Of a stretch of 50,338 bases of DNA, positions 9,793 through 32,840 are shown piece by piece (position 1 is the first letter of the stretch; each line of letters opens with the position of its first letter). The notes beneath the pieces were generated by a model that was not told where the DNA came from, did not search any database, and worked only from the letters and a program-made list of their open reading frames with translations. The DNA is from Paracoccaceae bacterium (GTDB lineage Bacteria; Pseudomonadota; Alphaproteobacteria; Rhodobacterales; Rhodobacteraceae), in the NCBI GenBank assembly GCA_026982515.1, contig JALSGY010000424.1:1-50338 (forward strand), in the 5' to 3' direction. Made by a program: the position numbers and the translations under genes.

Positions 9793-9814
9793 GGGGCCGC
9801 GTCCAGCCCGGTGA

Positions 9815-12742: not shown

Positions 12743-12756
12743 TGGCGCCTTTCCCC

Positions 12757-12800
12757 ATGAAAAACGGGGCCGGACAGGTGCCCGGCCCCGGAAAGTTTTC
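12757..12800. terminator. Bidirectional rho-independent terminator between convergent parB and the 1057-aa gene
   Basis: 9-bp GC stem cggggccgg (12765..12773) / ccggccccg (12782..12790) with an 8-nt loop. It is flanked by aaaaa (TTTTT on the minus strand) and gaaagtttt on the plus strand. Confidence 0.6.
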
Positions 12801-12814
12801 GGCGTTGCCCTGCC

Positions 12815-17419: not shown

Positions 17420-17502
17420 CGGGTTTCGTTTCTTGTGTCCATCCTGCCAATATAAGTTGAATTTGCCAGGGCAAAAAGGCATATCGGTCCGGTTGGATGT
17501 GA

Positions 17503-18759
17503 ATGGTCAGGGTGTGGATGATGGGCTCCGAGGGCAGGCAAGGTGGGGACGGCAAGCGTCTCCTGGTCTATGCGCCGGTTCCCCTGTATCAATCCGACAA
17601 CGGATTTCTTCTGGAAGATCAGGCCTGTAACGGCATCAGGCTCTGGGCCGAGAATTTTGACAAGGTGTCGATCATGATGCCTGTCGAAGCCGGCCCGGCC
17701 CCTGCCAACTGGGTTCCGATCGAGGCGATCGGCCCCAACCTTGAGCGCGTCGAGATCGTGCCGCTGCCGACGGCCTATCGGCCCGACCAGTTCCTGCGCC
17801 ATCTTCGCGCCACGCGCCGCATCATCCGCGCGCAGATCGACAAGGCCGACTACCTGTCGTTTTCGATTGGCGGTCTGTTCGGCGACTGGGGGTCGGTGTC
17901 GTGTTACGAGGCCTGGCGGAAGGGGCGCCCCTATGCCGTCTGGACCGACCGGGTTGAATCCGAGGTGATCCGGCGCACGGCGCATGCCGGCCACTGGCGC
18001 AAGCGGCTGCGCGCGCGCCTGACGCACCGGCCAATGTTCCAGCTTGAAAAATTCCTGATCCGGCGCGCCGCCCTGGGGTTGTTTCATGGCCGGGAAACCT
18101 TTGACACCTATGCGCCGTTTTGCCAGAGACCCGAGGTCGTTCATGACATTCACCTGAAGAAATCGGAACATATCCCGCCCGACAGGCTGGCGGCCAAGCG
18201 CTCGGCGGTGACCGACGGGCCGTTGAAAATACTCTATCTCGGGCGGGCCGACCCGATGAAAGGTCCGCTGGACTGGGTCGAGGTGCTGGAAACGGTCGCC
18301 CGGGCCGGGGTGGCATTCGAGGCCTGCTGGCTGGGCGAGGGGCCCGAACTGGCGGCCATGCAGGCGCGGGTCAGGGCGGCGGGCCTGCAAGATCATGTCG
18401 AATTCCCCGGTTTTGTCAGGGATCGGCAGGCGGTTCTGGACCGGCTGCGTGCGGCACATGTCTTTCTGTTCTGCCACAAGACACCGGAATCGCCGCGCTG
18501 CCTGATCGAAGCGCTGGTGTCGGGCACGCCGATCATCGGGTATGACGGCCCGTTTGCCCGGGATCTGATTGCCGATGGCCAGGGCGGTCTGCTGAGCCCT
18601 GTCGGCGACACCGGCACGCTGGCGGGCAATGTGGCCGGCCTTGGGCGTGACCGGGACAGGCTGGCCGAGATGATCGGAGCGGCGGCGCGGGCGGGATCGA
18701 TTTTTGACGATGAGGGCGTTTTTGCGCACCGCAGCGAGCTTATCCGTCGCTATCTGTAA
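17503..18759 (+). CDS. GT4/GT1-family glycosyltransferase
   Basis: The C-terminal half is GT-B-like: ILYLGRADPMKGPLDWVEVL, GEGPELAAMQARV and FLFCHKTPESPRCLIEALVSGTPIIGYD (an EX7E-like motif). Confidence 0.75.
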   Translation: MVRVWMMGSEGRQGGDGKRLLVYAPVPLYQSDNGFLLEDQACNGIRLWAENFDKVSIMMPVEAGPAPANWVPIEAIGPNLERVEIVPLPTAYRPDQFLRHLRATRRIIRAQIDKADYLSFSIGGLFGDWGSVSCYEAWRKGRPYAVWTDRVESEVIRRTAHAGHWRKRLRARLTHRPMFQLEKFLIRRAALGLFHGRETFDTYAPFCQRPEVVHDIHLKKSEHIPPDRLAAKRSAVTDGPLKILYLGRADPMKGPLDWVEVLETVARAGVAFEACWLGEGPELAAMQARVRAAGLQDHVEFPGFVRDRQAVLDRLRAAHVFLFCHKTPESPRCLIEALVSGTPIIGYDGPFARDLIADGQGGLLSPVGDTGTLAGNVAGLGRDRDRLAEMIGAAARAGSIFDDEGVFAHRSELIRRYL

Positions 18760-18780
18760 GCGGTTTGCTCAAAACAGTGT

Positions 18781-19455
18781 CTAATCAGGCAAAATCAGGC
18801 CGCAGACAAGCAGGTTTCCGACAATTTGCCACCGTCCGTCCGGGGGTGCATGACCGGGAAAGCGGGCAAGCCCGCCGGGAAAGGCGATCGAGAACCCGCC
18901 GGTGCTGGTGGATGCCGTGATCTCGACCGCGTCAAATCCGATCATCTCGCCGGTCAGCGGATACCGGGCCTTGTAGACGGCTTCCTTGGCGCTGAAGATC
19001 AGCTTGGCCAGCAGGGCGCGGTCGCGGGCGGGCTGGCGGTCAAGCCAGGCGCGTTCGGAGCGCGTGCAGATCGTGCCTTCCAGTTCCGCTTCCAGGGGCG
19101 TGGCGTCTTCGATGTCGATGCCGATCGCGCGCAGGTGCGTGCGGGGGGCCACGGCGGCGATGCAGGCGGTGGAACAATGGGCGATGGACCCCACCAGCCC
19201 TTCGGGCCAGACGGGCGCGCGGTCGGGGCCCTGCGGCACCGGGGCGGGGGGCAGGCCGATGTCGGCCATTGCAAGGCGCGCGGCCTGGCGCCCGGCGGCA
19301 AACTCCAGCCGCCGCCGGGGCACCGCGCGCGTCACTGCGGCGTCTTCCCCGGGATACAGCGCGCCGGCCGCAGCCGTCGGATCGGTGGCCGCGACCCCGA
19401 CACCTGGCCCCAGAAGCCCGCGCAGGGCTTCCGTGAGCGCTGCGAGATCGCTCAT
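18781..19455 (-). CDS. 4'-phosphopantetheinyl transferase (EntD/Sfp type)
   Basis: Contains FAAGRQAARLAM, GSIAHCSTACIAAV, IGIDIE and KLIFSAKEAVYKA. Its ATG overlaps the upstream NRPS-like stop codon (ATGA at 19452..19455). Confidence 0.85.
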   Translation of the reverse strand: MSDLAALTEALRGLLGPGVGVAATDPTAAAGALYPGEDAAVTRAVPRRRLEFAAGRQAARLAMADIGLPPAPVPQGPDRAPVWPEGLVGSIAHCSTACIAAVAPRTHLRAIGIDIEDATPLEAELEGTICTRSERAWLDRQPARDRALLAKLIFSAKEAVYKARYPLTGEMIGFDAVEITASTSTGGFSIAFPGGLARFPGHAPPDGRWQIVGNLLVCGLILPD

Positions 19456-22400
19456 GCGCTGCTGGACTGGCGGCGCGCGCGCATTTCGCGCCGCCGTTTC
19501 ATGGCTTCGGCGCGGGCTTCGGCTTTTTCGCCGGAAACAGTGTCTGTTTCAGGGGTTTTCGCTGGTTTTGCGCCCCCGGAAAGCTTGTCTTCCACGGTGC
19601 GGGCCAGCCCATCCAGCGTCGGAAAACGGAAGATGTCGGTGATGGAAAGCCGGTCGGCGCCCAGCTCCTTGCGAATCTCGCGATGCGCCTGCACGGCCAG
19701 CAGCGAATGGCCACCGAGATCGAAGAAGTTGTCCTTTGCGCCGATCCCGGACACCCCGAGGATGCGTGACCAGATATCCGCCACCTGCTGCATGACGGTG
19801 CCAACAGGGGCGGTGTCTTCTGTTGCCGAAGACGGCTTGCCGGCCGCGGCAGCAGCCATCGGGGCGGGCAGGGCGTTGCGGTCGACCTTCTTGTTGGGCG
19901 TCAGCGGAAAGGCGTCAAGCGTGACGAAGCGCGCCGGCAGCATGTGGGCTGGCAGGCGCGCGCCAAGATGGGCCTTCAGGTCGGCTTCGGGCACCGGGGT
20001 CTCGGCCAGCGTGTAGGCGACAAGCTGGCGCAGCCCCGGCACATCCTCGCGCAGCATCACCACCGACTGGCGCACGCCCGGATGGGTATCGAGCGCGCTT
20101 TCGATCTCGCCCAGTTCGATCCGGTAGCCGTGCAGCTTGACCTGGTCGTCGGCGCGGCCGAGAAAATCGAGCTGCCCGTCCGCGCGCCAGCGCACCAGAT
20201 CGCCGGTGCGATACAGGCGTGCGCCCTGGCTGTCGGTGAACGGGTCGTCGACAAAGCGTTCATCGGTCAGGTCGGGCCGTTGCCAGTAGCCGCGCGCCAC
20301 CCCGGCCCCGCCGATGTAAAGCTCACCCGCCATGCCAAGCGGCACCGGCGCGCGGTTTTCGTCCAGCACATAAACGCGGGTATTGGCGATCGGGCGTCCG
20401 ATCGGCGCGACGGTGTCGGTCGGGACAACCGGGCCGGTGGTCGACCAGATCGTGGTTTCGGTCGGGCCATACATGTTTTCGACATGGCCCCCGGCAAGCC
20501 CCAGCAGTTCGCGCACGAGCCCCCCCGGCAGCGCCTCGCCGCCGATCATCAGGTGGCGGACATGCGACAGCGCGTGGCGCGCCTCGTCGTTCATCACCAG
20601 CATCTGCGCCATCGAGGGCGTGCACTGCATATGGGTGACCGCGTGGCGCTGGATCTGGGCCGCGATCGAAAAGTCATCCTCGGCCGGCCCGGTTTCCTGG
20701 TTGGTGCGGCGCACCACCTCGGCCAGCGGCTTGAGGCCCTCGAGCACGGTGTCGCGCGCGATGCCGTAGTCGATCAGGCAGGCGATTTCGTCGACACCGA
20801 TGCGCTTGAGCTGTTCGGTGCGCGCCAGGCAGTCGTCAACCGTGCCAAACAGGCCCGAATCCTCGAAATAGCGCAGGAAGGCAAACTCGAGGATGGCGTC
20901 GAGCTCTTCCTCGCTCAGGATGCCGAGGTCGATATCGAAGGCGTTGTTCACGCCCTTGGGTTTCTTGAAGGCCGGGAAGACCCAGGCAAACTGCTTGATC
21001 AGCCCGGCGGCCGAGCGCAGGTAGTCCTTCATCGGCCCGCGGGCGATTTCGCGCACCGCTTCGCGGTCGGTCCCGACGAAAGTGTGCAGCATCAGCGTGA
21101 CGGTGAAGTCATCCGGGTCGTGGCCGGCCTCGCGCAGGGCGGCGTGGTAGATCCTGATCTTTTCGCCGACCTCGTCGATGCTCTGGCCAAGCAGGTGGGT
21201 CAGCACGTTGGCGCCGATCTCTCCGGCTTCGCGCCAGGTGTCGGGATTGCCGGCCGTGGTGATCCAGATCGGCAACTCTTTCGAGACCGGCCGGGGCTGG
21301 GTGAGCACCGCGTGCGGTGTGCCGTCGGCGGTCGGAAATTCCACCTCTTCGCCACGCCACAGGCGGCGCAGATCGTCGATTGCGCGATACATGGCGGGCT
21401 TGTTTTCGGGCGGCGTGTTTTCCGGGCGCAGCACGAAGTCATGCGGCTGCCAGCCCGAGGCGATGCCCAGCCCGGCCCGCCCGTTGGTCAGGTTGTCGAT
21501 CACCGCCCAGTCTTCGGCGATGCGCGCCGGGTGGTGCAGCGGGGCGACGCAGCTGCCGGCGCGCACCGCGATATTGCGCGTGATGGCCGCCACCGCCGCG
21601 CCGGTGACCGAGGGGTTGGGATAGGGGCCGCCGAACGCGTGGAAGTGCCGTTCCGGCGTCCAGACCGCGCAAAAGCCGTTCTGGTCGGCGAACCGTGCGC
21701 CATCGAGCAGCATCTTGTACTTGTCGCGCCCCTGGCCGTCGTCGTTGCCCCAGTAAAACAGGCTGAATTCCATGCCGCGCCCGGTGATGGCGTGCACCCC
21801 GGCGTTGTCGCCGGCCACCAGTGCGCGGTTTTCGTCGCTGCTGAGCACGACCTTGAAGCCGCGCGCAAGCGTCCAGAACAGCTCGAGCACCGAAATGTCG
21901 AACGACAGGCTGGTCAGGGCCAGCCAGACGCCCGGCGGGTCATGGGCGATGCGTTCATCCATGCCGGTGAAGAAATTGGCGACGTTGCGATGCTCGACCA
22001 TCACGCCCTTGGGCTTGCCGGTGGAGCCCGAGGTATAGATCAGGTAGGCCAGATCTTCGCCGGTCACGCCGCTTTGCGGGTTGATCGCCGGGGCCGAGGC
22101 GATCTGTGGCGCATCGTCAAGGCTGAGCAGTTGCGCGCCCGTTTCCGGCAGTGCATGCGCCAGGCCGGTATTGGTCACGATAACCCGGGCCCCGCTGTCT
22201 TCGGCATAAAGCGCGGTGCGGTCGGCCGGATAGGCCGGGTCCATCGGCAGGTAGGCGCCGCCGGCCTTGAGGATCGCCAGCGCCGCCACCAGCAGGTCGG
22301 TCGAGCGCGGCAGGTGCAGCCCGACGACGACCCCGGGCCTGACCCCCATGTCCTGCAGCACATGGGCGATGCGGTTGGCGCGCGCGTTCAGGGCGTCATA

Positions 22401-24080
22401 GCTCAGGCTTTCGCCTTCGAACGCCAGCGCCTCGGCCTCGGGGTTGCGGGCGACCTGCTGTTCGAAGAATTCATGAATGCAGGTGTCTGCCGGAAAGTCG
22501 CGCGCGGTGTCGTTCCAGTCTTCCAGCAGCATCCGGCGTTCGGCGTCGGGCAGGATCGGCAGGGCGCCGGGCGCCGTGTCGGGGGCCTGCACCGCCGCCT
22601 CCAGAAGATGCGTCAGCCGCGCCGCCAGGCGTTCAAGCTCGGCTGCATCGGGGCCGGTATTTGTGCTGATCAGTGTCGCTTTTGCGCCCTGAACCGCCAG
22701 GGTCAGCGCGGTGCCCGGCAGGCATCCGGCGCCCGCATCGCGCGACAGGCCGATGGTGGGCAGAACCGCCTTTTCGGCCAGGCGGGCGGGCAGGTCGCAG
22801 GCGAAACCGCCGTTGTCGAGCGCCTGGGCCAACTGTGCCGACAGCGCATCCCGGCTGGCGGCGAAACTGCTTTCGAGCGCGCCATGCACCGGAACCCAGG
22901 GGCAGACGTAATCGGGCGCATCGGGCAGGTGACAGGCCATGTCCAGCCCGTCCGTCCCTGCCATCCTGGCAAGCAGGATGGCGAGGGCGGCCCAGGCATC
23001 TTCGGCGCCGGCCCCTTCGGGCAGGGCAAAGCCGTGGCGCGGCGCATCGCCGTCACCGTTGCTGCCGAGCCGCGGCAGATCAAGCGGGGCGACCTGCTCG
23101 AGCCGGTCGCGCCAGAACGGTTCGGCACGCAGCAAAGGGGCAAGAACTGCATCGATCCGGGCCGCGTCTTCGGTGTCCGGGCTGGGCAGAACGTCGCCGG
23201 TCTGCGCCACATCGGAGGCCGGGACCGGACGGCCGAAACAGTCACTGATACGGCTTAAAACGATGTCATTCGTGCCGGTTGCCACGGTCAGGCTGTCGGC
23301 CGTGGCGGCCGTGACAGTGCCCGGCGCCTTGCCCGAAGCGGTCGGCGCGGGCACAGCGCTGTGCACCAGCCGGATTTCCCCGCCGGCCTCGATCTTGGGG
23401 CAAAGCAGCGGGTTGCGATAGTCGCCATGGTCAAGCGCACGCACCAGCCCCGCGAGGGTCTCGGCCGATTTCGTGAAATCGAGCCGTCCGCCGGCCTCGG
23501 GCCGGGCGTCGCGGCCGAAGTAGCTGCGCTGGTCCAGATCCTGGGGCGTGGCGGCCGGCGTGTCGCTGGCCAGTTCGGCCATCACCTGGCCAAAGCTGTC
23601 GATGGCGGCGCTGTAGCATTTCGTGTTGAGCGTGAGGGCGGTTTCGTCAGGGGCGATGTCAAACCGGCTCTGGGCGATGATGTCGCCTTCATCGACGCCG
23701 CCCGAAATCAGGTGCCAGGAGATGCCGTGGGTTTTCTCGCCATTGATCAGCGCCCAGACCGGCGCATTGAGACCGGCATAGCGCGGCAGCGGGCCATCGT
23801 GAAAATTGACCGCGCCGCGGGCGGCCATGTCAAGCGCGTCCTGCGGGATCAGGTCGAGATTGGCGATGGACAGGAGCCAGTCGAAATCATGGGGTTTCAG
23901 CCGTGCGGCCAGATCGGCGCCGGGGGCGAGCACCGGCAGGCCGCGGGATTTTGCCCAGTCCTGCACTTCGGCATTGCGGGTCACGACAGCGCGGATCGGA
24001 TTGTCCGCCTCCAGCAGCATTTCACCACATTGAATGACAAGGGATTCGTTGCCGATGAGGACGGAACTGAAACCGGGCAT
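19452..24080 (-). CDS. NRPS-like module: formyltransferase-like domain, degenerate condensation remnant, adenylation domain interrupted by a luciferase-like monooxygenase, PCP
   Basis: Fmt-like residues ~1-300 (VNFHDGPLPRYAG). C-to-A linker LPILPDAERRMLLEDWNDT. A motifs LAYLIYTSGSTGKPKG, SFDISVLELF, NMYGPTETT, GELYIGGAGVARGY, YRTGDLVRW, GRADDQVKLHGYRIELGEIE and PNKKVDR. An LLM insert of ~350 aa sits between A4 and A5 (MEFSLFYWGND...GIASGWQPHDF...). PCP motif FFDLGGHSL, with the Ser codon at 19704..19706. Confidence 0.9.
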   Translation of the reverse strand: MPGFSSVLIGNESLVIQCGEMLLEADNPIRAVVTRNAEVQDWAKSRGLPVLAPGADLAARLKPHDFDWLLSIANLDLIPQDALDMAARGAVNFHDGPLPRYAGLNAPVWALINGEKTHGISWHLISGGVDEGDIIAQSRFDIAPDETALTLNTKCYSAAIDSFGQVMAELASDTPAATPQDLDQRSYFGRDARPEAGGRLDFTKSAETLAGLVRALDHGDYRNPLLCPKIEAGGEIRLVHSAVPAPTASGKAPGTVTAATADSLTVATGTNDIVLSRISDCFGRPVPASDVAQTGDVLPSPDTEDAARIDAVLAPLLRAEPFWRDRLEQVAPLDLPRLGSNGDGDAPRHGFALPEGAGAEDAWAALAILLARMAGTDGLDMACHLPDAPDYVCPWVPVHGALESSFAASRDALSAQLAQALDNGGFACDLPARLAEKAVLPTIGLSRDAGAGCLPGTALTLAVQGAKATLISTNTGPDAAELERLAARLTHLLEAAVQAPDTAPGALPILPDAERRMLLEDWNDTARDFPADTCIHEFFEQQVARNPEAEALAFEGESLSYDALNARANRIAHVLQDMGVRPGVVVGLHLPRSTDLLVAALAILKAGGAYLPMDPAYPADRTALYAEDSGARVIVTNTGLAHALPETGAQLLSLDDAPQIASAPAINPQSGVTGEDLAYLIYTSGSTGKPKGVMVEHRNVANFFTGMDERIAHDPPGVWLALTSLSFDISVLELFWTLARGFKVVLSSDENRALVAGDNAGVHAITGRGMEFSLFYWGNDDGQGRDKYKMLLDGARFADQNGFCAVWTPERHFHAFGGPYPNPSVTGAAVAAITRNIAVRAGSCVAPLHHPARIAEDWAVIDNLTNGRAGLGIASGWQPHDFVLRPENTPPENKPAMYRAIDDLRRLWRGEEVEFPTADGTPHAVLTQPRPVSKELPIWITTAGNPDTWREAGEIGANVLTHLLGQSIDEVGEKIRIYHAALREAGHDPDDFTVTLMLHTFVGTDREAVREIARGPMKDYLRSAAGLIKQFAWVFPAFKKPKGVNNAFDIDLGILSEEELDAILEFAFLRYFEDSGLFGTVDDCLARTEQLKRIGVDEIACLIDYGIARDTVLEGLKPLAEVVRRTNQETGPAEDDFSIAAQIQRHAVTHMQCTPSMAQMLVMNDEARHALSHVRHLMIGGEALPGGLVRELLGLAGGHVENMYGPTETTIWSTTGPVVPTDTVAPIGRPIANTRVYVLDENRAPVPLGMAGELYIGGAGVARGYWQRPDLTDERFVDDPFTDSQGARLYRTGDLVRWRADGQLDFLGRADDQVKLHGYRIELGEIESALDTHPGVRQSVVMLREDVPGLRQLVAYTLAETPVPEADLKAHLGARLPAHMLPARFVTLDAFPLTPNKKVDRNALPAPMAAAAAGKPSSATEDTAPVGTVMQQVADIWSRILGVSGIGAKDNFFDLGGHSLLAVQAHREIRKELGADRLSITDIFRFPTLDGLARTVEDKLSGGAKPAKTPETDTVSGEKAEARAEAMKRRREMRARRQSSSA

Positions 24081-24083
24081 GCG

Positions 24084-25112
24084 TTACTCTCCAGGTTGAG
24101 GGGGCAGAGGTCGGGCGTCGCGCTTCGCCGGTGAAAGGAGCCTGCGCCGCAGGGCGGCCAGATCGTGGCGCGCCATGGAGCGCAGGAATTGGGGGGACAC
24201 TTCGCGTTTCTTGCGGGTCAGCGTTGCACGCAGCCAGCACAGGCCGCCACCGGTCAGGTGGGCAAGCGTCGCGAGGCCGGCATAAAGGGCGCCGTGGTTC
24301 TTGGCGAAGTAGTGCCAGCGCGAGTCGTACCAGTAGTCGGGCACCCGCGACCAGGTTTTCATTCCGGTGGACACCGAACCGATATGGGTCACGACACTGT
24401 CGCGCAGAAAAATGATCTCGTGGCCAGCAAGGCGGACGCGGCGGCACAGGTCGGTTTCCTCGAAATAGAGAAAGAAGGTTTCATCGAACAGGCCCACCTC
24501 ATCGAGCACGCTCTGGCGCATCATCAGGCTGGCCCCGGCCAGCCAGTCGACAGACTGCCCGTCGCGCGGTGTTTCGATCGGCACCCGGTGGCGGGCCAGC
24601 AGGCGGCTGACCGGCCCGAAGCGGATCGCGCTTTCGAATTCGCTGAGGATCGAGGGGAAGCGGAAAGCCGAGGTGTGCGCCACCCCGTCCTCGCCGTGGA
24701 TGTAGCTGCCGGCGAAGGCGGTTTCGGGATGGGCAACCAGGTGGTTCAGCAAAACGCGGATCGCCTCCGGCTCGGGGAAGGCATCCGAGTTTTGCACATA
24801 AATGAAATCGGGGCGCGATCCGTCACTGAGTCCGGCCCGGATGCCGACGTTGTTGCCGGCCCCGAAGCCACCGTTGTGACCGGATTGCAGAAGGCGCACC
24901 CGGTCGTTCCTGTCCCAGCCCGCGTCCGCGATGTGATTGCGGATCGTTTCATCGGAACCGTCCCGGCTGTCGTTGTCGACGATGACGATTTCACCGGCGA
25001 TGCCGTCCATCGCCGCCAATGCGGCTTCGGTTGCGCGCAGGGTCATCGGCGCCGTGCGGTAGTTCAGGATGACGGTCAGAAGTGTTGGATCCGACGTGGT
25101 ACTGGTCTGCAT
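24084..25112 (-). CDS. Family-2 glycosyltransferase embedded between the PKS and NRPS-like genes
   Basis: ATG at 25110..25112 (MQTSTTSDPTLLTVILNYRT...IVIVDNDSRDGSDE...) lies 1 nt after the PKS stop. The longer track ORF (to 25187) would overlap the PKS. The stop is 3 nt before the NRPS-like start. Confidence 0.85.
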   Translation of the reverse strand: MQTSTTSDPTLLTVILNYRTAPMTLRATEAALAAMDGIAGEIVIVDNDSRDGSDETIRNHIADAGWDRNDRVRLLQSGHNGGFGAGNNVGIRAGLSDGSRPDFIYVQNSDAFPEPEAIRVLLNHLVAHPETAFAGSYIHGEDGVAHTSAFRFPSILSEFESAIRFGPVSRLLARHRVPIETPRDGQSVDWLAGASLMMRQSVLDEVGLFDETFFLYFEETDLCRRVRLAGHEIIFLRDSVVTHIGSVSTGMKTWSRVPDYWYDSRWHYFAKNHGALYAGLATLAHLTGGGLCWLRATLTRKKREVSPQFLRSMARHDLAALRRRLLSPAKRDARPLPPQPGE

Positions 25113-25113
25113 A

Positions 25114-28100
25114 CTATTCTGCTGCCTTGATTGTTTTTGGTGGGATGCTGGTTTCGCCAGCCTCCCATGCCCGTTCTGCCGCTTCAAGCCGGTGTTTCAT
25201 TCGTGCGGCGAGAACCCGCACATTGGGTTCAAGCACCATGGAATCGTGGTCGCCCGGCACTTCGAATACCTCGATGGCATGGGCCCATCTGGTCCAGCCG
25301 TTGTCCGGAAGAAGGTAGTGGCGATGCTTGTCGACAAGCCGCCCCGGCGCCACTTCCCACTGGCCGATCTGGGGCGGGCGGATCAGGGCAAGCGGCCCGG
25401 ACCAGGGCATGACCTTGTAGGCCCCCACGCTTTCGAGGAAAGCATCCTGGATGGCCGCATTGTGGAATTCATGCGCTGCCTCGGTTTCTTCGTCATGGCC
25501 CTGGCGTTTGCCCAGTTCCCAGGCGATGCGGTTCCTTGCCCAGGTGGTCAGATAGCCAAGGCCCTGACGGCGCAGGTTGATCCAGTTGATCATGATGCGG
25601 TCGCGCCGCGACAGCGGCGGGCGCACCGGCAGGGGGGTGTCGAGCATGATCAGCTCCGACACGGTTTCGCCGGCGGCCGTCAGCTGTTGGGCAATCTCGT
25701 AGGCAATGATGCCGCCGCCGGAAAACCCGCCCAGCATGTAGGGGCCATGCGGCCGGACCTGGCGCATTTCGGCGATATAGTCGCGCGCCGCCTCGACCAC
25801 CGAGCGGTGCGGCTCCTCATCGCCGTAAAGCCCGCGCGCCTGCAGCCCGTAAAACGGCCGGTCGGCGCCCAGAAGATGCGCAAGATGGCGCAGGTTCAGC
25901 ACGTTGCCGAACATGCCGGCCACCAGGAAGAACGGGGTTTTCGGCCCCCCTTCGCCGGCATGCATCGGCACCAGGTGGGTGAAGCGGCGTTCGGTCCTGG
26001 CCACAGCCGGGGCCGGGGCGCCGTCTTCTTCGTCGGTGGCCACACCGCGCGCGGCGATCAGCTCGGCGCATTTGCGGATCGTCGGGGCTTCGAACAGCAC
26101 CGAAATCGGAAAGTCGACCTGCCAGGTCTTGCGGATCTGTGCAAACAGCCGCACCGCGATCAGGGAATGTCCGCCAAGGTCGAAGAAACTGTCTTCGACG
26201 CCGACCTGATCGACCCCGAGCAGGTCCTGCCAGAAGCCGGCCAGCCGGGATTCGATCGCATTTTCCGGGGCAACGTAGTCGGCATCGAGCTCGGGGCGCT
26301 GGAACTTCTGCTCGCTGCCCTGGTTGTCGGCCACGCTTTCGCCGGCCTGGGCGGCCAGCCCGGCGAGATCGAGCGACGACACGATCACCTGGGGCAGATC
26401 GGTGCTCAGGGCGCGCAGGAACAGGTCAGCCCCCTCGGCCGGGCGAATACCCTGGGTCAGGTTGTGGCGCAGGCGCTCTTCGGCGGGCGACAGCGGGCGC
26501 GCGGCCTCGTTGTCGGGCAGGGTGGCGACAGGGTTGTCGGCCGGGGCGGCCGCGAATTGCGCCGCGCTTTCCAGGCGGCGGATCGAAAACCCGCGGATCT
26601 CGACGCAGACGGTGCCGTCGGGGGCCGCGATGGTGACATCGAAACTTGCGGTTTCGGCGCCGGCCTCGTTTTCGCCGCTGTTGCGCACCCAGCTGACGAC
26701 CTCGGCCGGCAGGGGGCGGAAGACCCGGACCGAGCGGTAGGAAACCGGCACCCACAGGTGGGTCGGGCGATAGCCGGCGATCAGCTCCATCGCCCAGCCG
26801 GTGGCGATATCCATCAGCCCGGGGTGCAGCAGGCAGCCGGTGTCATTCCCGGCCCCGGGCAGGGCAAGCCGGGCCAGGCCCTCGCCCTGACCCAGGGCGG
26901 TTTCACGCAGCACATGCCACTGGGCGCCGAAGTTCAGCTGTGCTTCCTGGGGCGCGCTCAGCCATTGGCCCGGCGGCGCGGTGACCGGAGCGCCGCAGCG
27001 CGCGGCGATGGCCGCGGGGTCGATCGGGTCGGGGGGCGTCTGCGGCAGCAGCGAAAGACTGGCCTGGGCGTTCTGTTCGCGGTCCGCGCCGGCGCCGCTT
27101 TCAACGCTCAGGTCATAGCCGGTGTCGCTGCGTGAAAGCGTCAGGCGGATGTCACGCTCTTGTCCGTCTTCCACGGCCAGCGGGCGCAGGAAATAGAGGT
27201 CGCGGATCTCGAATGTCTGTGGCTCGCCCTGTGCGCGCAGGGCCTCGGCGGCCAGTTCGATATACCCGGTGCCCGGCAACAGCGCGTCGCCCGCGCGGGT
27301 CCGGTGCTGGTCGAGAAACCAGCGCCCGTCCGCCCGCCAGCGCGCCGTGAACAGCCGGTTGCCGGCGCCGTCGAAGCTGGCGTCGTCCAGCATCGGCTCG
27401 CCCGCCGCCTCGACCGGCGGGGGCGGGGTGGACCCGGTGCGCACCTGCATGGCATCGGCGGCCATGCCGACATCGGCCCAGATGCCCCAGTCGATGGCCA
27501 GAACCCGGGTCTTGCCGCCGGCGCGCGCCCTGGCGTAGGCGTTGAGATATTCGTTGGCCGCGACATAGTCGACCTGCCCCGGCGGGGCGGTGACGGTGGA
27601 GGTCGAGGAAAACAGCACCAGCCAGTCGAGCGCGCCATCGGGGAAGAGCTCATCGAGCACCTGGGTGCCGTGGATCTTGGGGGCGAAGACATCTTCGATC
27701 CCGGTCATCGACTTGGTCATGATCAGCCCGTCTTCGATCAGCCCGGCGGCATGGATCACGCCATTGACCGGCCCCCAGCGCCCCTCGATCTCGGCGCGGG
27801 CGGCCCGCATGTCCTCGACATTGCTGACATCGGCGGCAAGACACATGACCTGCCCGCCGGCCTCTTCCAGCGCCTGCACCGCCCGGATGCGCCGCGCCAG
27901 GCTGTCGCCGGGGGCGGTATTGCGCAGGATCTGCTCCCATTTGTCCCGGTCGGGCAGGGCGTTGCGCGACAAGAGCACGATACGCGCCGAGACCTTGCGG
28001 ATCAGGGTTTCGGCCAGGGTCAGCCCGATGCCGCCGAACCCGCCGGTGATCAGGTAGACGCCTTCTTCGCGCAGCGGTGGCACCAGGGTGTCCGGGGCGG

Positions 28101-31100
28101 CGATTTCCTGTTGCCGCCAGCCCAGTTCGAACCGCTTGTCGCCGCGCAGGGCCACGGTGGCGGTGGCCGGCGGGGCGAGCAGATCTTCGAGCAGCCGTTC
28201 GGCCAGCGCGGCCATCTGCGGATCGGGGCCGGTGCGTTTGCGGCGCGCGGGCTCCTGCGGCAGCTCCAGGTCGATCAGCGAACAGCTGAAGCCCGGAAAC
28301 TCGCGCGGGATGACCCGCGCCGGTCCGGCGATCGTGGCCTTTTCCGGATAGGCCAGCCCCTCATCGCGCACCTGTTGCGCCCCGGTGGTCAGCACGCTCA
28401 GGTGCAGCGGCATGGCCAACCCCTCGTCGCCGATGGCCTGGGCCAGAAACAGCAGGCTGTAAAACCCCTGTTCGAGATTGCGGTGGAAAAAGCTGCTGCC
28501 GGGGCGGAAGGTTTCCTTGCGGGTGGCCAGCCAGCCGTGGACGATCCGGCTCGGGGCCATGTCGCGTTCCACGAGGTCGCGGATCAGCGCGTCATAGCTT
28601 TCGCGCCCGCGCTCGGGGGCGATGATGTAACCGTCGTCGCCCATGCGCGCGAAAGTGTCGCCGGCGCGCACGGTGATCACCGGGTGCCCGGCCGCGCGCA
28701 GCCGTTCGGTGATGGCCCCGGTCAGCCCGGCGTCATCGGCAAAGACCAGCCAGGTTTCGCGCGGGGCCTCTGACAGGTCACCGCTTGTGTCGATGTCGCA
28801 GGCGGCATAGGTCGGGGTCCAGGCCGGGCGATAGCCCCAGCGCGACAGGTCATCCTCGCGCATCAGCCAGCGATTGTCGGTTTCGGCGGGTTTGCCCGGC
28901 TCGATGAAATAGGGCGCACGCTGGAAGGCGTAGCCGGGCAGCGGCACCCGCAGGCGCCGCGCGTCGCCCCAGTATTGTGCCCAGTCAAAGCGCCCCCCCA
29001 TGGCCCAGAGCCGCCCGAGCATGGCCAGGAAATAGGCATCATCGCCGATTTCGTCTTTCGGGTGGCGCAGGCTGGACATCACCTGGTTGGCGGTGGCATC
29101 GCCATGCTGGCCGGTCAGCGCGGCCAGCGCCTTGCCGGGGCCGACCTCGAGGAAGATGCGCCCGGGGGTCTGTGCCAGTGTCGCGATACAGTCGGCGAAA
29201 TGCACGGTGCCGCGCAGGTGGCCGACCCAGTAGTCGGGGTCGGTGGCTTCGGCCTCGGTGATGAACGCGCCGCTGCGGTTCGAGGTGAAGGGGATGCGCG
29301 GGGCGTGCAGCTCGATCGAGCGCAGATAGTCGCCGAAATCCTTCAGGATCGGTTCGAGCATGCGCGAATGGGCGGCAATGTCGATCGGGATGCGCTGGCA
29401 GTCGATGTCACGTTCTTTCAGCACCGCTTCCAGCGCGTCCAGCGCATCCTGGGCGCCGGTGGCGACGCTCAGCCCCGGCGCGTTGACCGCCCCGAGGTCC
29501 AGGTCGTCGCCCAGCAGCGGCTTCAGGTCTTCGGCGGGCAGGGCCACCGACAGCATGCCGCCGGCAGGCACCGTATCAAACAGGCGACCGCGCAGGTGCA
29601 CCAGCCCGATGCAGTCTTCGAACGACATGACCCCGGCCACGCAGGCGGCGGTGTTTTCCCCCATCGAATGGCCGACCAGGGCTGCCGGGCTTACCCCCCA
29701 GCTCATCCACAGCTGCGCCAGCGCATATTCGACGATCATGATCAGCGGCAATTGCACCGACGGCTGCTTGAGCCGGTCTTCGGCCTCGGCCCTGGCGCCG
29801 GGTTCGGGCAGCCAGATTGCGCGGATGTCATAGTCGAGCTTCGGCTGCAGGATTTCCAGGCCGCGGTCCATCCATTCGGCAAAGACCGGCTCGGTCTCGT
29901 AGAGGTCGCGCGCCATGCCGGCATATTGCGCCCCGCCGCCGGGGAACATGAACACGACCTCCGGGTCGTCGCCGACCACCGTGTGGGTGAAAACGCGGCG
30001 CGGGTCGTTTTCCTCGAGCAGGCGGGCGGCTTCTTCGTGGGTCTCGGCCACGACGACGCGGCGCCTTTCGAATTCGCGCCGGCCTTCCTTCAGGGTCCAG
30101 GCAATGTCGGCCAGGGGCTGTTCGGGATGGGCGCGCAGATGGGCGGCCAGCCGGGCGGCGTTGCCGTCGAGCGCGCCCTTGCTGCGCCCCGAAATGCACA
30201 GCAGCTGGAACGGCCAGTCCGAGGCTTCGGAGGCGACCCGTTCGGGGGCTTCTTCCAGAACGGCATGGGCATTGGTGCCCCCGACCCCGAGCGAGTTCAC
30301 CCCGGCCCGGCGCGGCCCCTTGTGCGATTGCCAGTCGCTCAGCCGGTCGTTGACGCGAAACGGGCTGTGCGCGAAGTCGATTGCCGGGTTCGGCTTTTCG
30401 TAGCCGAGCGAGGGCGGGATCTGGCGCCTGTGCAGCGACAGCGCGGTCTTGATCAGGCTGGCAACCCCGGCCGCGGTGTCGAGATGGCCGATGTTGGTCT
30501 TGACCGAGCCAAGCCGGCAATAGCCGGTTTCATCGGTGGTTTCGCCAAACGCCTGGGTGAGGGCGGCCACCTCGATCGGGTCGCCCAGGTAGGTGCCGGT
30601 GCCGTGGCACTCGACATAGTCGATGGTGTCGGCCGGCGTGCCGGCCATGCTGAGCGCTTCGGAAATGGCGGCGGCCTGGCCGTCGACCGACGGGGCAAGA
30701 TAGCCGGCCTTGGCGGCGCCATCGTTGTTGACGGCGGTGCCCTTGATCACGGCCCAGATATGGTCGCCGTCGGCGATGGCATCGGCCAGCCGACGCAGCA
30801 CCACGACACCCGCGCCCGAGCCGAACACCGTGCCCTGGGCGCGGTGATCGAACGCGTGGCAATGGCCGTCGGGCGACAGCACTTCGCCTTCCTTGTAGAT
30901 ATAGCCGCGCCCCTGCGGCAGTTCGATTGTCACCCCGCCGGCCAGCGCGATGTCGCATTCGCCGGTCATCAGCGCCTGGGCCGCGTAATGGGTGGCCACC
31001 AGCGAGGTCGAACACGCGGTCTGCAGGTTGATGCTCGGGCCCTTGAGGTCAAGGATGTGGCTGGCCCGCGTCGACAGGAAGTCCTTGTCGTTGCCGGTGT

Positions 31101-31563
31101 GGCGCAGCAGGAACATGCCCACGTCTTCAACCAGGTCCGGGTTCGAGCAGACGTTGAAATAAAAGTAGCTGCCCATGCCGCAGCCGGCAAACACCCCGAT
31201 CGGCCCCCTGGCCTTTTCCGGCGGGTGGCCGGCGTTTTCCAGCGCTTCCCAGGCCACCTCCAGGAACTGGCGGTGCTGCGGGTCCATGATCGCGGCTTCT
31301 TTCGGCGACAGCCCGAAGAATTCGGCATCAAAGGTTTCGAACCCTTCCAGCGGGGCGGCGGCGGGCACATAGTCGGGGCGGTTCAGCAGGTGCGGCGCCT
31401 CGCCGTTTTCCAGCAGCTCCTCGCGGCTGAACTGGCGGATCGATTCGATGCCGTCGCGCAGGTTGGCCCAGTATTGGTCTATCGAGCCCGCGCCGGGCAG
31501 ATGTGCGGCCATGCCGACGATGGCGATGTCGGTGTCGGCGCTGCGATGTGTCGTGTCATTCAT
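25114..31563 (-). CDS. Type I polyketide synthase, KS-AT-KR-DH-carrier protein-TE
   Basis: KS: QTACSTSLV (Cys184), ECHGTGT, KTNIGH. AT: GHSMGE (Ser633). KR: VYLITGGFGGIGL (aa ~1170). PS-DH: LDQHRTRAGDALLPGTGY (aa ~1420). Carrier: FFDLGGHSLIAV (Ser1800, codon 26164..26166). TE: MLGGFSGGG (aa ~1948) and VPGDHDSM. Confidence 0.9.
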   Translation of the reverse strand: MNDTTHRSADTDIAIVGMAAHLPGAGSIDQYWANLRDGIESIRQFSREELLENGEAPHLLNRPDYVPAAAPLEGFETFDAEFFGLSPKEAAIMDPQHRQFLEVAWEALENAGHPPEKARGPIGVFAGCGMGSYFYFNVCSNPDLVEDVGMFLLRHTGNDKDFLSTRASHILDLKGPSINLQTACSTSLVATHYAAQALMTGECDIALAGGVTIELPQGRGYIYKEGEVLSPDGHCHAFDHRAQGTVFGSGAGVVVLRRLADAIADGDHIWAVIKGTAVNNDGAAKAGYLAPSVDGQAAAISEALSMAGTPADTIDYVECHGTGTYLGDPIEVAALTQAFGETTDETGYCRLGSVKTNIGHLDTAAGVASLIKTALSLHRRQIPPSLGYEKPNPAIDFAHSPFRVNDRLSDWQSHKGPRRAGVNSLGVGGTNAHAVLEEAPERVASEASDWPFQLLCISGRSKGALDGNAARLAAHLRAHPEQPLADIAWTLKEGRREFERRRVVVAETHEEAARLLEENDPRRVFTHTVVGDDPEVVFMFPGGGAQYAGMARDLYETEPVFAEWMDRGLEILQPKLDYDIRAIWLPEPGARAEAEDRLKQPSVQLPLIMIVEYALAQLWMSWGVSPAALVGHSMGENTAACVAGVMSFEDCIGLVHLRGRLFDTVPAGGMLSVALPAEDLKPLLGDDLDLGAVNAPGLSVATGAQDALDALEAVLKERDIDCQRIPIDIAAHSRMLEPILKDFGDYLRSIELHAPRIPFTSNRSGAFITEAEATDPDYWVGHLRGTVHFADCIATLAQTPGRIFLEVGPGKALAALTGQHGDATANQVMSSLRHPKDEIGDDAYFLAMLGRLWAMGGRFDWAQYWGDARRLRVPLPGYAFQRAPYFIEPGKPAETDNRWLMREDDLSRWGYRPAWTPTYAACDIDTSGDLSEAPRETWLVFADDAGLTGAITERLRAAGHPVITVRAGDTFARMGDDGYIIAPERGRESYDALIRDLVERDMAPSRIVHGWLATRKETFRPGSSFFHRNLEQGFYSLLFLAQAIGDEGLAMPLHLSVLTTGAQQVRDEGLAYPEKATIAGPARVIPREFPGFSCSLIDLELPQEPARRKRTGPDPQMAALAERLLEDLLAPPATATVALRGDKRFELGWRQQEIAAPDTLVPPLREEGVYLITGGFGGIGLTLAETLIRKVSARIVLLSRNALPDRDKWEQILRNTAPGDSLARRIRAVQALEEAGGQVMCLAADVSNVEDMRAARAEIEGRWGPVNGVIHAAGLIEDGLIMTKSMTGIEDVFAPKIHGTQVLDELFPDGALDWLVLFSSTSTVTAPPGQVDYVAANEYLNAYARARAGGKTRVLAIDWGIWADVGMAADAMQVRTGSTPPPPVEAAGEPMLDDASFDGAGNRLFTARWRADGRWFLDQHRTRAGDALLPGTGYIELAAEALRAQGEPQTFEIRDLYFLRPLAVEDGQERDIRLTLSRSDTGYDLSVESGAGADREQNAQASLSLLPQTPPDPIDPAAIAARCGAPVTAPPGQWLSAPQEAQLNFGAQWHVLRETALGQGEGLARLALPGAGNDTGCLLHPGLMDIATGWAMELIAGYRPTHLWVPVSYRSVRVFRPLPAEVVSWVRNSGENEAGAETASFDVTIAAPDGTVCVEIRGFSIRRLESAAQFAAAPADNPVATLPDNEAARPLSPAEERLRHNLTQGIRPAEGADLFLRALSTDLPQVIVSSLDLAGLAAQAGESVADNQGSEQKFQRPELDADYVAPENAIESRLAGFWQDLLGVDQVGVEDSFFDLGGHSLIAVRLFAQIRKTWQVDFPISVLFEAPTIRKCAELIAARGVATDEEDGAPAPAVARTERRFTHLVPMHAGEGGPKTPFFLVAGMFGNVLNLRHLAHLLGADRPFYGLQARGLYGDEEPHRSVVEAARDYIAEMRQVRPHGPYMLGGFSGGGIIAYEIAQQLTAAGETVSELIMLDTPLPVRPPLSRRDRIMINWINLRRQGLGYLTTWARNRIAWELGKRQGHDEETEAAHEFHNAAIQDAFLESVGAYKVMPWSGPLALIRPPQIGQWEVAPGRLVDKHRHYLLPDNGWTRWAHAIEVFEVPGDHDSMVLEPNVRVLAARMKHRLEAAERAWEAGETSIPPKTIKAAE

Positions 31564-32081
31564 TGAAATGCGAAGTCCCTATCGCATCAAGTGCGGGTTT
31601 CTGAGAGTTGAAAGACTCGAAAAAAATCCAGAGATAATCAAAAAGACCAACCTTTTTCTACCGGGGGCAATTCGCCGGGTCAAACAGCGGCATTGTTGCG
31701 TATCGGGCAGTAGCATGGGACAGGCCATTCTCAAATGCGGCAGCCCGGAAAATTGCCCTGATGATCACGATCCGGCGTCAATGTTTCGTGAGCGGGCGGA
31801 TTGGTTCGGTTCCCGGCAAGATCATTCCGCGCTTTTCTGGTGAACCTGCCCGGGGTCTTGCCCGGGTGGATGGCCCGTGAGCGCGCCTTTACCCCTTGTT
31901 TTCAGGGTGAAAAAACGGGTGATCGTGGCGGTTTCCGAGAAAAAACAGGGCCATTTCCGGTTTTTTGCCCCGCTCAGCAGCGCCAATTGCGGCAGCATTG
32001 CGTTGCAATCATGGCCCCAATGGTGCAGTTTGGCCGAGGATGAGTTTCCCGGCTATTTCCGGGATATTGAAGGAGTGGGTA
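31564..32081. promoter_or_regulatory. 518-bp divergent intergenic region between the PKS operon and the VPLPA-CTERM gene
   Basis: No credible ORF. An AT-rich core lies at ~31610..31660 (gaaagactcgaaaaaaatccagagataatcaaaaagacc). The RBS GAAGGAG at 32069..32075 precedes the cargo ATG. Confidence 0.45.
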
Positions 32082-32840
32082 ATGGGGTTGAAGTTTTTGA
32101 AAGCCTGCGTGGCTTGCGCAATGGTTTATCTGCCCGCCGTCGGGACGGCGCAGGCGGCGACGGTCAATATTGTCCGGGTTGCCGATAATCCTCAGGAAAC
32201 GGTTTACGGGATTCGTGACAACACCGGGACAGACGGGGTTGATCTGGATGGTGCGATCTTTACGGCGACCTATGCCGATGGAACAAGCGAAGAGATCGTC
32301 TGGAACGCCTTGCGCACATTCAACTACAGCATCGATGGCGAAGCGGCCGGGACGGACACATATGTCTACATGAGCTGGGACGGGTTCGAAATGACGACGA
32401 CCCGCCTGCTGACCTCGCTTCTCATCCAGCTTGCTCCGGCCAGCTCGGTTTTTGACACGACGTTCATCTTCGATCCCGATCCGGCCTCTACGCCAGGGTC
32501 CAGCTTTGGCTATCCGTTCGAGCTTTACAGTGCCTATTCCGGTCTGCAGGGCAGCATCACGGCGACCTATTCGGGGATCGTGAACATGGCCGGCGATGTG
32601 GCGCGGGGCGATCTGTTCACCGACATGCTCGTCGACTTTTCGGGTCTGTCGACCGGTGGAATTCTTGGCGCCGTGAGCTTCAGGTCCGACATGGACACCC
32701 TGCGGTATGCGGGCGATCTGACGCCGATTTCCCCGGTGCCGCTTCCGGCCGGTTTCTGGCTTTTGCTGGCCGGCATGGGCGGTTTCGTGTTGAGCGGTCG
32801 CATGGCGCGGCGCGGCTCTGCGGCCCGGGTTTCCGCCTGA
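32082..32840 (+). CDS. Secreted protein with a C-terminal VPLPA-CTERM exosortase sorting signal
   Basis: Signal peptide MGLKFLKACVACAMVYLPAVGTAQA. The C-terminus reads ...PISP-VPLPA-GFWLLLAGMGGFVLSG-RMARRG (motif, TM helix, basic cluster). VPLPA is encoded at 32735..32749. I recognise no family for the ~200-aa mature domain. Confidence 0.85.
   Translation: MGLKFLKACVACAMVYLPAVGTAQAATVNIVRVADNPQETVYGIRDNTGTDGVDLDGAIFTATYADGTSEEIVWNALRTFNYSIDGEAAGTDTYVYMSWDGFEMTTTRLLTSLLIQLAPASSVFDTTFIFDPDPASTPGSSFGYPFELYSAYSGLQGSITATYSGIVNMAGDVARGDLFTDMLVDFSGLSTGGILGAVSFRSDMDTLRYAGDLTPISPVPLPAGFWLLLAGMGGFVLSGRMARRGSAARVSA

Follow-up and report, generated by a model that had tools for sequence, protein, structure and literature searches.

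An apparent plasmid-borne orthologue of the conserved PKS–glycosyltransferase–NRPS–PPTase cluster of Rhodobacterales, with a predicted formylglycine loading module

Introduction

A four-gene cluster encoding a polyketide synthase (PKS), a glycosyl transferase, a nonribosomal peptide synthetase (NRPS) and a 4′-phosphopantetheinyl transferase (PPTase) is conserved among roseobacters; in the passage of PMC5014874 that deals with it, the cluster is attributed to Martens et al. 2007 and its product is given as not identified. Another study (PMC4337385) detected it in 28 of the 57 roseobacter genomes that it covered and again called its product uncharacterised, while genome-mining papers of 2023 and 2024 class it as an NRPS-like/T1PKS (type I PKS) cluster without similarity to a known cluster. 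Here, we analysed a stretch of 50,338 nucleotides from a Paracoccaceae bacterium (contig JALSGY010000424.1, assembly GCA_026982515.1; hereafter the window), in which genes for a type I PKS, a GT2-family glycosyltransferase, an NRPS and a PPTase occupy positions 18781–31563.

Several described systems resemble parts of this cluster. N-formylation by a formyltransferase (F) domain has been demonstrated in LgrA and is the proposed reaction in CongA and OzmO, and starter modules composed of an F domain, a glycine-activating adenylation (A) domain and a peptidyl carrier protein (PCP) feed a ketosynthase (KS) in the conglobatin and oxazolomycin pathways (PMC4504003). A monooxygenase inside the glycine A domain hydroxylates the α-carbon in the myxothiazol and melithiazol pathways (MtaG/MelG; PMC11342130), and the monooxygenase of PuwE has been proposed to make a 2-hydroxy acyl unit (PMC4219810). 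The monomodular PKSs WcbR and RkpA lie within capsule loci of Burkholderia and rhizobia (PMC3908369), and so provide a precedent for a monomodular PKS in a polysaccharide locus.

The best overall explanation of the data presented below, to which we assign a rough probability of 0.6, is that the window carries a four-gene orthologue of the roseobacter cluster that would make a formylglycine-started, PKS-extended and sugar-coupled product, a surface glycoconjugate being likelier than a free antibiotic.

Results

Organization of the four genes

All four genes are located on the minus strand. The type I PKS gene (25114–31563; 2149 aa), taken from the open reading frame (ORF) list and identified by Pfam and NCBIfam matches, stands first and is followed by the GT2 gene (24084–25112; 342 aa), whose product has a GT-A fold (PF00535 and PF13641) and which lies between both synthases. 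The NRPS gene (19452–24080; 1542 aa), identified by Pfam and NCBIfam matches including TIGR04020, and the gene of an Sfp/EntD-type PPTase (18781–19455; 224 aa; PF17837 and PF01648) complete the cluster. As each of the four ORFs gave strong domain matches, they are considered to be real genes rather than chance ORFs of GC-rich DNA. The G+C content of the synthase genes was 0.66–0.70 over most of their length, compared to 0.59–0.64 in the flanking plasmid DNA (0.594 just 5′ of the PKS gene), a difference that could be due to the amino-acid composition of megasynthases or to a different origin.

The junctions were read directly from the sequence. The PKS stop codon (25116–25114) is separated from the GT2 start codon (ATG at 25112) by a single nucleotide at 25113 (GAA TAG t ATG CAG), the GT2 stop codon (24086–24084) is separated from the NRPS start codon (ATG at 24080) by three nucleotides (GAG TAA cgc ATG), and the NRPS and PPTase genes share a four-nucleotide ATGA overlap at 19455–19452 (GCGC ATGA GCG). 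An earlier note on this DNA had described four minus-strand genes with 1-nt, 3-nt and ATGA junctions, and that description is exact to the base. Although the GT2 ORF extends formally to a TTG at 25187 (24084–25187 in the ORF list), its homologues are about 337 aa long and their alignment begins at residues 2–11 of the ATG-started protein, suggesting that the ATG at 25112 is the likely start. In the orthologous loci, after removal of carrier-domain cross-hits between PKS and NRPS, the median gaps were −4 nt for PKS to GT2 (n = 60), +4 nt for GT2 to NRPS (n = 50) and −1 nt for NRPS to PPTase (n = 57). The four genes are therefore a tightly packed, co-oriented unit, and translational coupling can reasonably be inferred from a spacing that is kept across species.

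A promoter and terminator scan of positions 18300–32400 returned two promoter-like and eight terminator-like sites, which was no excess over shuffled sequences, and no internal promoter or terminator signal rose above chance across the four genes. The intergenic region 5′ of the PKS gene (31564–31964), which is shared with a divergent gene for a VPLPA-CTERM protein and is presumed by its position to hold the operon promoter, contained no sigma-70-like site above chance.

Relationship to the conserved roseobacter cluster

The GT2 protein had 3978 database homologues at E ≤ 1e-10. The best 120 of these were 62–74% identical to it, and the named ones were almost all from roseobacter genera; the genera of its relatives include Roseovarius, Ruegeria, Yoonia, Primorskyibacter, Tateyamaria and Sulfitobacter. 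With one genome taken per species, a GT2 relative was encoded in at least 589 species genomes, and the four window proteins were compared by tblastn with the best 80 of these loci. The results showed that PKS, GT2, NRPS and PPTase genes occur in one order and on one strand in nearly all of the 80 loci, the gaps mostly corresponding to short contigs. This arrangement was also found in Ruegeria sp. ANG-S4, a strain of PMC4337385, in which the identities to the window proteins were 73% for PKS, 65% for GT2, 64% for NRPS and 46% for PPTase. Across the loci of Ruegeria, Primorskyibacter, Litoreibacter, Yoonia and others, the identities were 60–74% for PKS, 55–67% for NRPS, 55–68% for GT2 and 38–59% for PPTase. 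The window copy is thus fairly divergent, with its closest database relative about 74% identical or less among the matches listed.

Taken together, gene content, order and sequence similarity indicate with high confidence that the window carries a plasmid-borne orthologue of the conserved four-gene cluster of Rhodobacterales, adding another copy rather than a new kind. The mention in the earlier note of a conserved roseobacter cluster without an assigned product, which it could not match with certainty to these genes, is borne out by the literature and by the synteny with strain ANG-S4; the synteny comparison in Rhodobacterales that it had proposed, carried out here as the homologue and tblastn locus scan, agrees with it. 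A literature search up to 2026 likewise found no product assigned to the cluster, the papers of 2015–2024 still calling the product unknown, although closed-access work may hold an assignment. The note had also called the dedicated PPTase and the glycosyltransferase between the two synthases unusual: both are present, but they are defining and conserved traits of this cluster, so that they are unusual only in a relative sense.

The window copy differs from other copies in its location. It lies on a plasmid of about 50 kb with RepA and ParAB genes, whereas many of the other loci are on contigs of up to 4.2 Mb, which are too long for plasmids, and its partner Wzx, Wzy-like and GT2 genes are 8–12 kb away instead of adjoining it.

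The complete four-gene cluster was also found outside Rhodobacterales, at about 57–65% identity, in three loci of Hydrogenophaga (Betaproteobacteria; L056, L066 and L067) and in a metagenome-assembled genome labelled Erythrobacter sanguineus (L055). Going by the genome labels, this occurrence points to horizontal transfer.

The NRPS as a loading module

The NRPS begins with an F domain comprising N and C subdomains (23181–24080, minus strand; residues 1 to about 300; PF00551 and PF02911). It continues with the first part of an A domain (21825–22493; residues 539–752), a luciferase-like flavin mononucleotide (FMN)-dependent monooxygenase of the MupA/Atu3671 family (20715–21767; residues 772–1122), the second part of the A domain (19866–20678; residues about 1135–1405) and a PCP (19596–19790; residues 1431–1495; S1459), all on the same strand. 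The monooxygenase matched TIGR04020 with 487 bits against a cut-off of 244, and is inserted between motif A4 (FDIS, residue 727) and motif A5 (NMYGPTE, residue 1202). No condensation (C) domain was detected in the NRPS, the only trace being a match to the last 40 positions of the Condensation profile at E 0.22. A degenerate C domain at residues 305–525 was considered and rejected on account of this E value and of the low conservation (29%) of what is the least conserved NRPS region, and the segment was treated as an F-to-A linker.

An A-domain specificity code of DILQMGMIWK was read by hand from the core motifs, with D, I and L taken from FDIS, Q from THMQCTPS, M and G from LMIGGEA, M, I and W from NMYGPTETTIW, and K from NKKVDR. 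We take this code to be a glycine signature by comparison with the published code DILQLGLIWK. Among 71 aligned NRPS sequences, the code was DILQ[MFYL]GM[IV]WK in every one, and the F-domain residues N92, H94 and D130 and the PCP residue S1459 were invariant. The best-kept part of the NRPS was the monooxygenase, with a mean identity of 78% in an alignment of about 70 orthologues. Across the roughly 70 orthologues aligned for either synthase, this conservation of residues and code is consistent with a functional enzyme system that is kept by purifying selection.

By its domain content, the NRPS is a loading module of the form F–A(Gly, interrupted by a monooxygenase)–PCP, which the term 'NRPS-like' under-describes. 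It resembles OzmO, CongA and the rhizopodin protein RizA in having an N-terminal F domain, a glycine A domain and a PCP and in passing the starter to a KS with no C domain in between, but in the window the A domain is interrupted by the FMN monooxygenase. The best match of the whole NRPS among solved structures was LgrA of linear gramicidin (E 1e-231), which has the same F–A–PCP order. LgrA, however, continues with C domains, has an uninterrupted A domain and carries an F domain that is only distantly similar to that of the window (E 7e-6, residues 64–158 only); the residue at its first position is valine. A loading module that has a formyltransferase, a glycine A domain and, within the latter, a monooxygenase would unite two devices known separately, and was not found described in the literature searched.

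The embedded monooxygenase closely matched the PuwE domain (PDB 6KET; E 3e-102), and in MtaG and MelG, too, a glycine A domain is interrupted between A4 and A5 by an FMN monooxygenase from the MupA/Atu3671 family. As cleavage chemistry has been described for MtaG and MelG, hydroxylation of the α-carbon might cleave the bond between it and the nitrogen here as well, releasing formamide or ammonia and leaving a PCP-bound glyoxylyl group as the starter, so that the product would be a short oxo or hydroxy dicarboxylic-type acid that is then glycosylated. The shared arrangement, together with the strong conservation of the monooxygenase noted above, speaks for this alternative. It leaves, however, an invariant and apparently active formyltransferase unexplained. 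The known cases in the MtaG/MelG/PuwE group are terminal C–A(monooxygenase)–PCP–thioesterase (TE) modules making a terminal amide, whereas in the window the monooxygenase belongs to a loading module that also has an F domain and delivers to a PKS; neither a C nor a TE domain was found in the window NRPS, which is therefore not of that terminal type. Moreover, by general chemistry, N-acyl-α-hydroxyglycines can be stable enough for further processing. We therefore regard cleavage of the starter as improbable.

The substrate of the F domain was considered separately. Among solved structures, its closest relatives were ArnA (E 4e-22, residues 22–294, spanning both subdomains) and several sugar N-formyltransferases, LgrA being far more distant as given above; the domain retains a C-terminal Formyl_trans_C subdomain, and in the alignment with ArnA, N92, H94 and D130 fall on the catalytic Asn-x-His and Asp motifs, where their counterparts are presumably N102, H104 and D140. 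These similarities, the adjoining GT2 gene and the surrounding polysaccharide genes would suit an enzyme that formylates an amino sugar nucleotide rather than a tethered glycine, the N-formyl amino sugar then being transferred by GT2 in parallel to ArnA/ArnC. On the other hand, all 71 sequences have the F domain covalently fused to the N-terminus of the A–PCP module, which is where F domains stand whose action on carrier-bound amino acids has been shown or proposed; this argues for a tethered amino acid as the substrate. NRPS F domains probably derive from sugar formyltransferases, so that similarity to the latter does not decide the substrate. An ArnA-like role consequently appears quite improbable.

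The PKS as an extending and finishing module

The Pfam and NCBIfam matches placed the PKS domains, all encoded on the minus strand, in the order KS–acyltransferase (AT)–ketoreductase (KR)–dehydratase (DH)–acyl carrier protein (ACP)–TE. The KS (30250–31533; residues 11–438) carries C184, H320 and H360, the AT (29113–29955; residues 537–817) carries S633 in the motif IAAHS, and the KR together with its structural subdomain (ψKR) spans 27472–28842 (residues 908–1364) with Y1333, N1337 and D1278, the last of which stands at the 'LDD' position and indicates a B-type KR. They are followed by the DH (26557–27366; residues 1400–1669; H1420 and D1585), the ACP (26056–26247; residues 1773–1836; S1800) and the TE (25234–25929; from residue 1879; S1948, D1975 and H2106). 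In an alignment of 69 PKS sequences, the catalytic residues of KS, AT, KR, DH and TE were invariant or nearly so and the ACP serine was invariant; the best-kept parts among about 70 orthologues were the KS and the ACP (81% each).

The closest solved relatives of the KS–AT region were PDB 8XJU and 8XJY, KS–AT didomains of NRPS–PKS hybrids being among the closest solved relatives of the KS. The entry 8XJZ, to which this KS–AT belongs, also has an NRPS chain; we suspect it to be the colibactin ClbH–ClbI complex and use it here solely as an NRPS–PKS complex.

An F–A(Gly)–PCP module placed directly before a KS, as in OzmO/OzmQ and CongA/CongB, raises the question of whether the cluster is an oxazole pathway of the oxazolomycin/conglobatin type, in which a single extension of the formylglycine starter is followed by cyclodehydration to a 5-substituted oxazole, and the conservation of both the glycine code and the F-domain triad agrees with such a pathway. 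Ring closure, however, needs the β-keto group that the active-looking KR and DH would remove; the window has a single cis-AT module with KR and DH, which makes an oxazole unlikely. In addition, no cyclodehydratase of the OzmP/CongE type was seen in the operon or among the recurrent neighbours, although no search with OzmP or CongE sequences was made. The sole PP-loop-type enzyme of the window is an AsnB-like amidotransferase 15 kb away that has no counterpart in the other loci, and the monooxygenase in the A domain is not described for OzmO and CongA. The oxazole model was rejected as the leading explanation because no cyclodehydratase was seen and KR and DH were intact, and we regard it as hardly credible.

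GT2 and PPTase

The GT2 protein showed weak similarity to WbbL-type rhamnosyltransferases and MftF in NCBIfam, and a sequence search of the PDB returned no match for it. An AlphaFold2 model with a pLDDT (predicted local distance difference test score) of 80 gave generic GT-A matches only, such as ppGalNAc-T, WrtF, TarP and GlfT2, with TM (template modelling) scores of about 0.55. The PPTase matched the NCBIfam families Npt, PptT and EntD, all below their cut-offs. A PPTase match was located 3′ of the NRPS gene in 56 of the 80 loci, the remainder being short contigs or loci without a match.

Neighbouring genes in other genomes

The flanking ORFs of 58 loci of at least 20 kb were clustered, with about 3.5 kb visible 5′ and 4.7 kb visible 3′ of the cluster. 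At least one neighbour of the Wzx, Wzy_C, Wzz, CpsD-like, GT2, WecG or epimerase type was present in 48 loci (83%). The most frequent was a Polysacc_synt_3 flippase immediately 5′ of the cluster and on the same strand (25 loci), followed by a Gfo/Idh/MocA–epimerase fusion (22 loci), a GT2 family (21 loci; another GT2 family in 10) and a CpsD-like ATPase (20 loci). Neighbours of the Wzz (16 loci), Wzy_C-like (12 loci) and WecG (7 loci) types were less common; the Hydrogenophaga loci have a WecG neighbour.

Plasmids of other bacteria carry the synthases among similar genes. On plasmid pW43C of Parasedimentitalea marina, the PKS, GT2 and NRPS genes are followed by a gene annotated as hypothetical, with no PPTase match there, and are flanked by genes for glycosyltransferases, a sugar transferase and a CpsD/CapB kinase. 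A plasmid of Paracoccus liaowanqingii has PKS, GT2 and NRPS genes, then an annotated PPTase gene and a convergent glycosyltransferase gene, and adjoins genes for a sugar transferase, glycosyltransferases and CpsD/CapB. Plasmid pUSP1 of Aminobacter sp. MSH1 (Hyphomicrobiales; locus 11420–24846) is rearranged: NRPS and PPTase genes are co-oriented, the PKS gene is divergent, no GT2 gene lies between the synthases and a glycosyltransferase gene lies 3′ of the PPTase gene, in a polysaccharide locus with genes for a flippase, an O-antigen-ligase family protein, an export protein, glycosyltransferases, a GH9 hydrolase and a TolC-family protein. Exosortase-type neighbours recur as well, since genes for XrtD and a VPLPA-CTERM protein adjoin the cluster in one locus (L018) and a VPLPA-CTERM gene does so in another (L009), both VPLPA-CTERM genes lying just 5′ of the PKS gene. 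The earlier note had suggested that the context would be new if the cluster lay on a plasmid beside genes for exopolysaccharide (EPS) and an exosortase. This does not hold: three other plasmids carry the synthases among EPS genes, most of the surveyed loci have polysaccharide neighbours, and exosortase-type neighbours occur in at least two other genomes.

The embedding of the cluster in Wzx/Wzy-type polysaccharide loci in most genomes makes its product likelier to be a component, decoration or primer of a surface glycoconjugate than a free antibiotic. WcbR and RkpA are comparable by context, in that they too are single-module type I PKSs among polysaccharide synthesis and export genes in Proteobacteria; the description of their clusters, however, names a PKS with capsule biosynthesis and export genes and makes no mention of an NRPS loading module, an inserted GT2 or a PPTase of their own.

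These neighbours also bear on the view that this is an ordinary secondary-metabolite cluster whose polysaccharide genes are mere neighbours, the product being a diffusible, glycosylated N-formyl-amino polyketide acid such as an antibiotic, a signal or a metal binder. The synthases do form a classic NRPS–PKS assembly line with a releasing TE and a PPTase of its own, genome-mining papers class the cluster as an NRPS-like/T1PKS biosynthetic gene cluster, and 10 of the 58 loci showed no recognizable polysaccharide neighbour in the visible flanks. Yet the polysaccharide association is found in 83% of the loci and is kept across rearrangements, on plasmids and in other orders and classes, and no transporter, regulator or resistance gene is among the conserved neighbours. 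A freely diffusible metabolite is, on balance, somewhat unlikely.

The plasmid and polysaccharide genes of the window

The window makes up nearly all of a 50,352-bp contig. It contains genes for the replication initiator protein RepA (8678–9937, minus strand; PF10134) and, divergent from it, for ParA (10048–11505) and a ParB/RepB-like protein (11599–12720). This replication module (8678–12720) matched 172 plasmids at about 78–80% identity, the great majority from Rhodobacterales genera, including Phaeobacter, Leisingera, Rhodovulum and Marinovum. The closest protein relatives were all from roseobacter genera, and the window has no rRNA or marker gene. Judged by its replication genes, the window is probably a RepA/ParAB plasmid of Rhodobacterales. 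A megablast search of the right-hand third of the window against the plasmids of PLSDB gave one weak match only, suggesting that, beyond the replication module and the cluster, the plasmid backbone has no close relative in PLSDB.

The surroundings described in the earlier note are real, in that RepA, ParA, ParB-like, XrtD, glycosyltransferase, Wzx-like and Wzy-like genes are all present in the window. The Wzx-like flippase (40080–41591, plus strand), a GT2 protein (41596–42732, minus strand) and a Wzy_C/O-antigen-ligase-like protein (42572–44116, minus strand), each recognized by Pfam, are homologues of recurrent neighbour families by tblastn, with identities listed as 44%, 46% and 41%, respectively; these families adjoin the cluster in 25, 10 and 12 of the 58 loci. 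Further polysaccharide genes of the window encode several GT4 and GT2 glycosyltransferases, a WecG/TagA-type glycosyltransferase, a DegT-like aminotransferase, an epimerase, a polysaccharide deacetylase and a methyltransferase.

On the 5′ side of the PKS gene and divergent from it, a secreted VPLPA-CTERM protein is encoded on the plus strand (31965–32840), with a signal peptide ending in LPAVGTAQA and a textbook C-terminal sorting signal containing VPLPAGFWLLLAGMGGFVLSGRMARRGS. The VPLPA-CTERM signal is the substrate tag of XrtD, the exosortase gene of which is located at 793–2397 (TIGR04152, 642 bits against a cut-off of 400). The AsnB-like, exosortase-associated amidotransferase is encoded at 46341–48392 on the plus strand and matched TIGR03108 with 581 bits, below the cut-off of 817; it is closest to the family of the XrtA/PEP-CTERM system, yet the exosortase of the plasmid is XrtD, not XrtA.

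On the other side of the cluster, a GT4 glycosyltransferase gene (17503–18759, plus strand; PF00534) is convergent with the PPTase gene and ends 21 nt from its stop codon. Beyond it lies a gene for a conserved 333-aa protein (16481–17482, minus strand), which is hydrophobic in one segment near its N-terminus and matched no family in Pfam or NCBIfam. The arrangement of PPTase, convergent GT4 and 333-aa protein genes is also found in Primorskyibacter sedentarius (L007), and a convergent GT4 gene after the PPTase gene occurs in L054, L079 and the Paracoccus plasmid as well. In 21 related loci, homologues of the 333-aa protein (the six best sharing 62–68% identity with it) are encoded 3′ of the PPTase gene; most of the listed ones follow it immediately and share its strand, whereas in the window and in P. 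sedentarius the convergent GT4 gene intervenes. By this recurrence, the 333-aa protein may be an unrecognized fifth member of the cluster in one sub-lineage.

A 1057-aa protein without a family match, with a signal-like N-terminus and a long Pro/Thr/Asp-rich stretch, is encoded at 12815–15988 on the minus strand. Its sequence is reminiscent of right-handed β-helix proteins, and a homologue with 58% identity is encoded 3′ of the cluster in a Litoreibacter locus (L002).

Discussion

The identity of the cluster and the logic of loading and termination are the parts of our interpretation that we hold with the greatest confidence, judging from domain content and synteny. The NRPS is recognized as the starting module by its N-terminal F domain and the lack of a C domain, and the PKS as the finishing one by the TE at its C-terminus, so that the predicted flow is from NRPS to PKS although the PKS gene stands first. 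As predicted from its family, the Sfp-type PPTase would turn the carrier domains of both synthases into their holo form. The A domain, with its invariant code, would then activate glycine and load it onto the PCP, and the F domain, with its invariant N-H-D triad, would N-formylate the PCP-bound glycine from formyl-tetrahydrofolate, as in the OzmO, CongA and LgrA modules. The embedded FMN monooxygenase would hydroxylate the carbon α to the thioester, as proposed for MtaG/MelG and PuwE. These glycine, formylation and hydroxylation steps are probable on the strength of the conserved residues and domain matches.

The starter would next be accepted by the KS straight from the PCP, so that no C domain is needed, and would undergo a malonyl-type extension, for which a single round is assumed. 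The B-type KR and the DH would give an enoyl intermediate, the C-terminal TE would release an unsaturated acid, and GT2 would join this product to a sugar. A glycosylated product of a single extension, and its link to polysaccharide, are put forward more tentatively than the loading steps. Equally tentative is the wider proposal that the module is an accessory of Wzx/Wzy-type surface-polysaccharide systems that moves with their genes across chromosomes, plasmids and bacterial classes; GT2 might then join a formylglycine-derived, oxidized acyl unit of four or more carbons to a sugar and so furnish the exopolysaccharide or capsule of a roseobacter with a decoration or primer that is not carbohydrate, a proposal that we place short of an even chance.

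A number of points weigh against a formylglycine-started, sugar-coupled surface product. Every chemical step in the scheme rests on domain homology. Within the loading module, a starter both N-formylated and hydroxylated at the α-carbon might break down, in the manner of MtaG/MelG, to formamide and a glyoxylyl thioester, and the role of the F domain would then be puzzling; the closer similarity of that domain to ArnA and sugar N-formyltransferases than to LgrA keeps a sugar substrate in play. In the PKS, the order of KR and then DH differs from the usual modular order, more than one round of extension is conceivable, the number not being evident from the sequence, and the AT motif IAAHS is neither of the canonical motifs, HAFH for malonyl and YASH for methylmalonyl units, which makes the extender unit uncertain. 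The generic nature of the GT-A matches means that the acceptor of GT2 cannot be deduced from its structure. As for the genomic context, the 10 loci without a polysaccharide neighbour in their visible flanks run counter to a general association, and the polysaccharide neighbourhood could in part be inherited synteny rather than a sign of function.

What this analysis may add to the literature is an explicit domain reading of the loading module and a counted embedding of the module in polysaccharide loci. If the polysaccharide-linked interpretation is true, loading by F domain, glycine A domain and monooxygenase would be a starter chemistry that was not found described in the literature searched. 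The predicted starter, a glycine that is N-formylated and probably hydroxylated at the α-carbon, makes the question of the product more testable, and curing or transfer experiments could conveniently make use of a small plasmid that unites the cluster with its polysaccharide partners. The cluster is among the most widespread uncharacterised biosynthetic clusters of marine Rhodobacterales, an abundant group that matters in algal blooms, in biofilms and in symbioses with animals. Given the predicted starter and the usual location among polysaccharide genes, culture extracts would not be the only place to seek its product, the cell surface and the exopolysaccharide being worth examining too.

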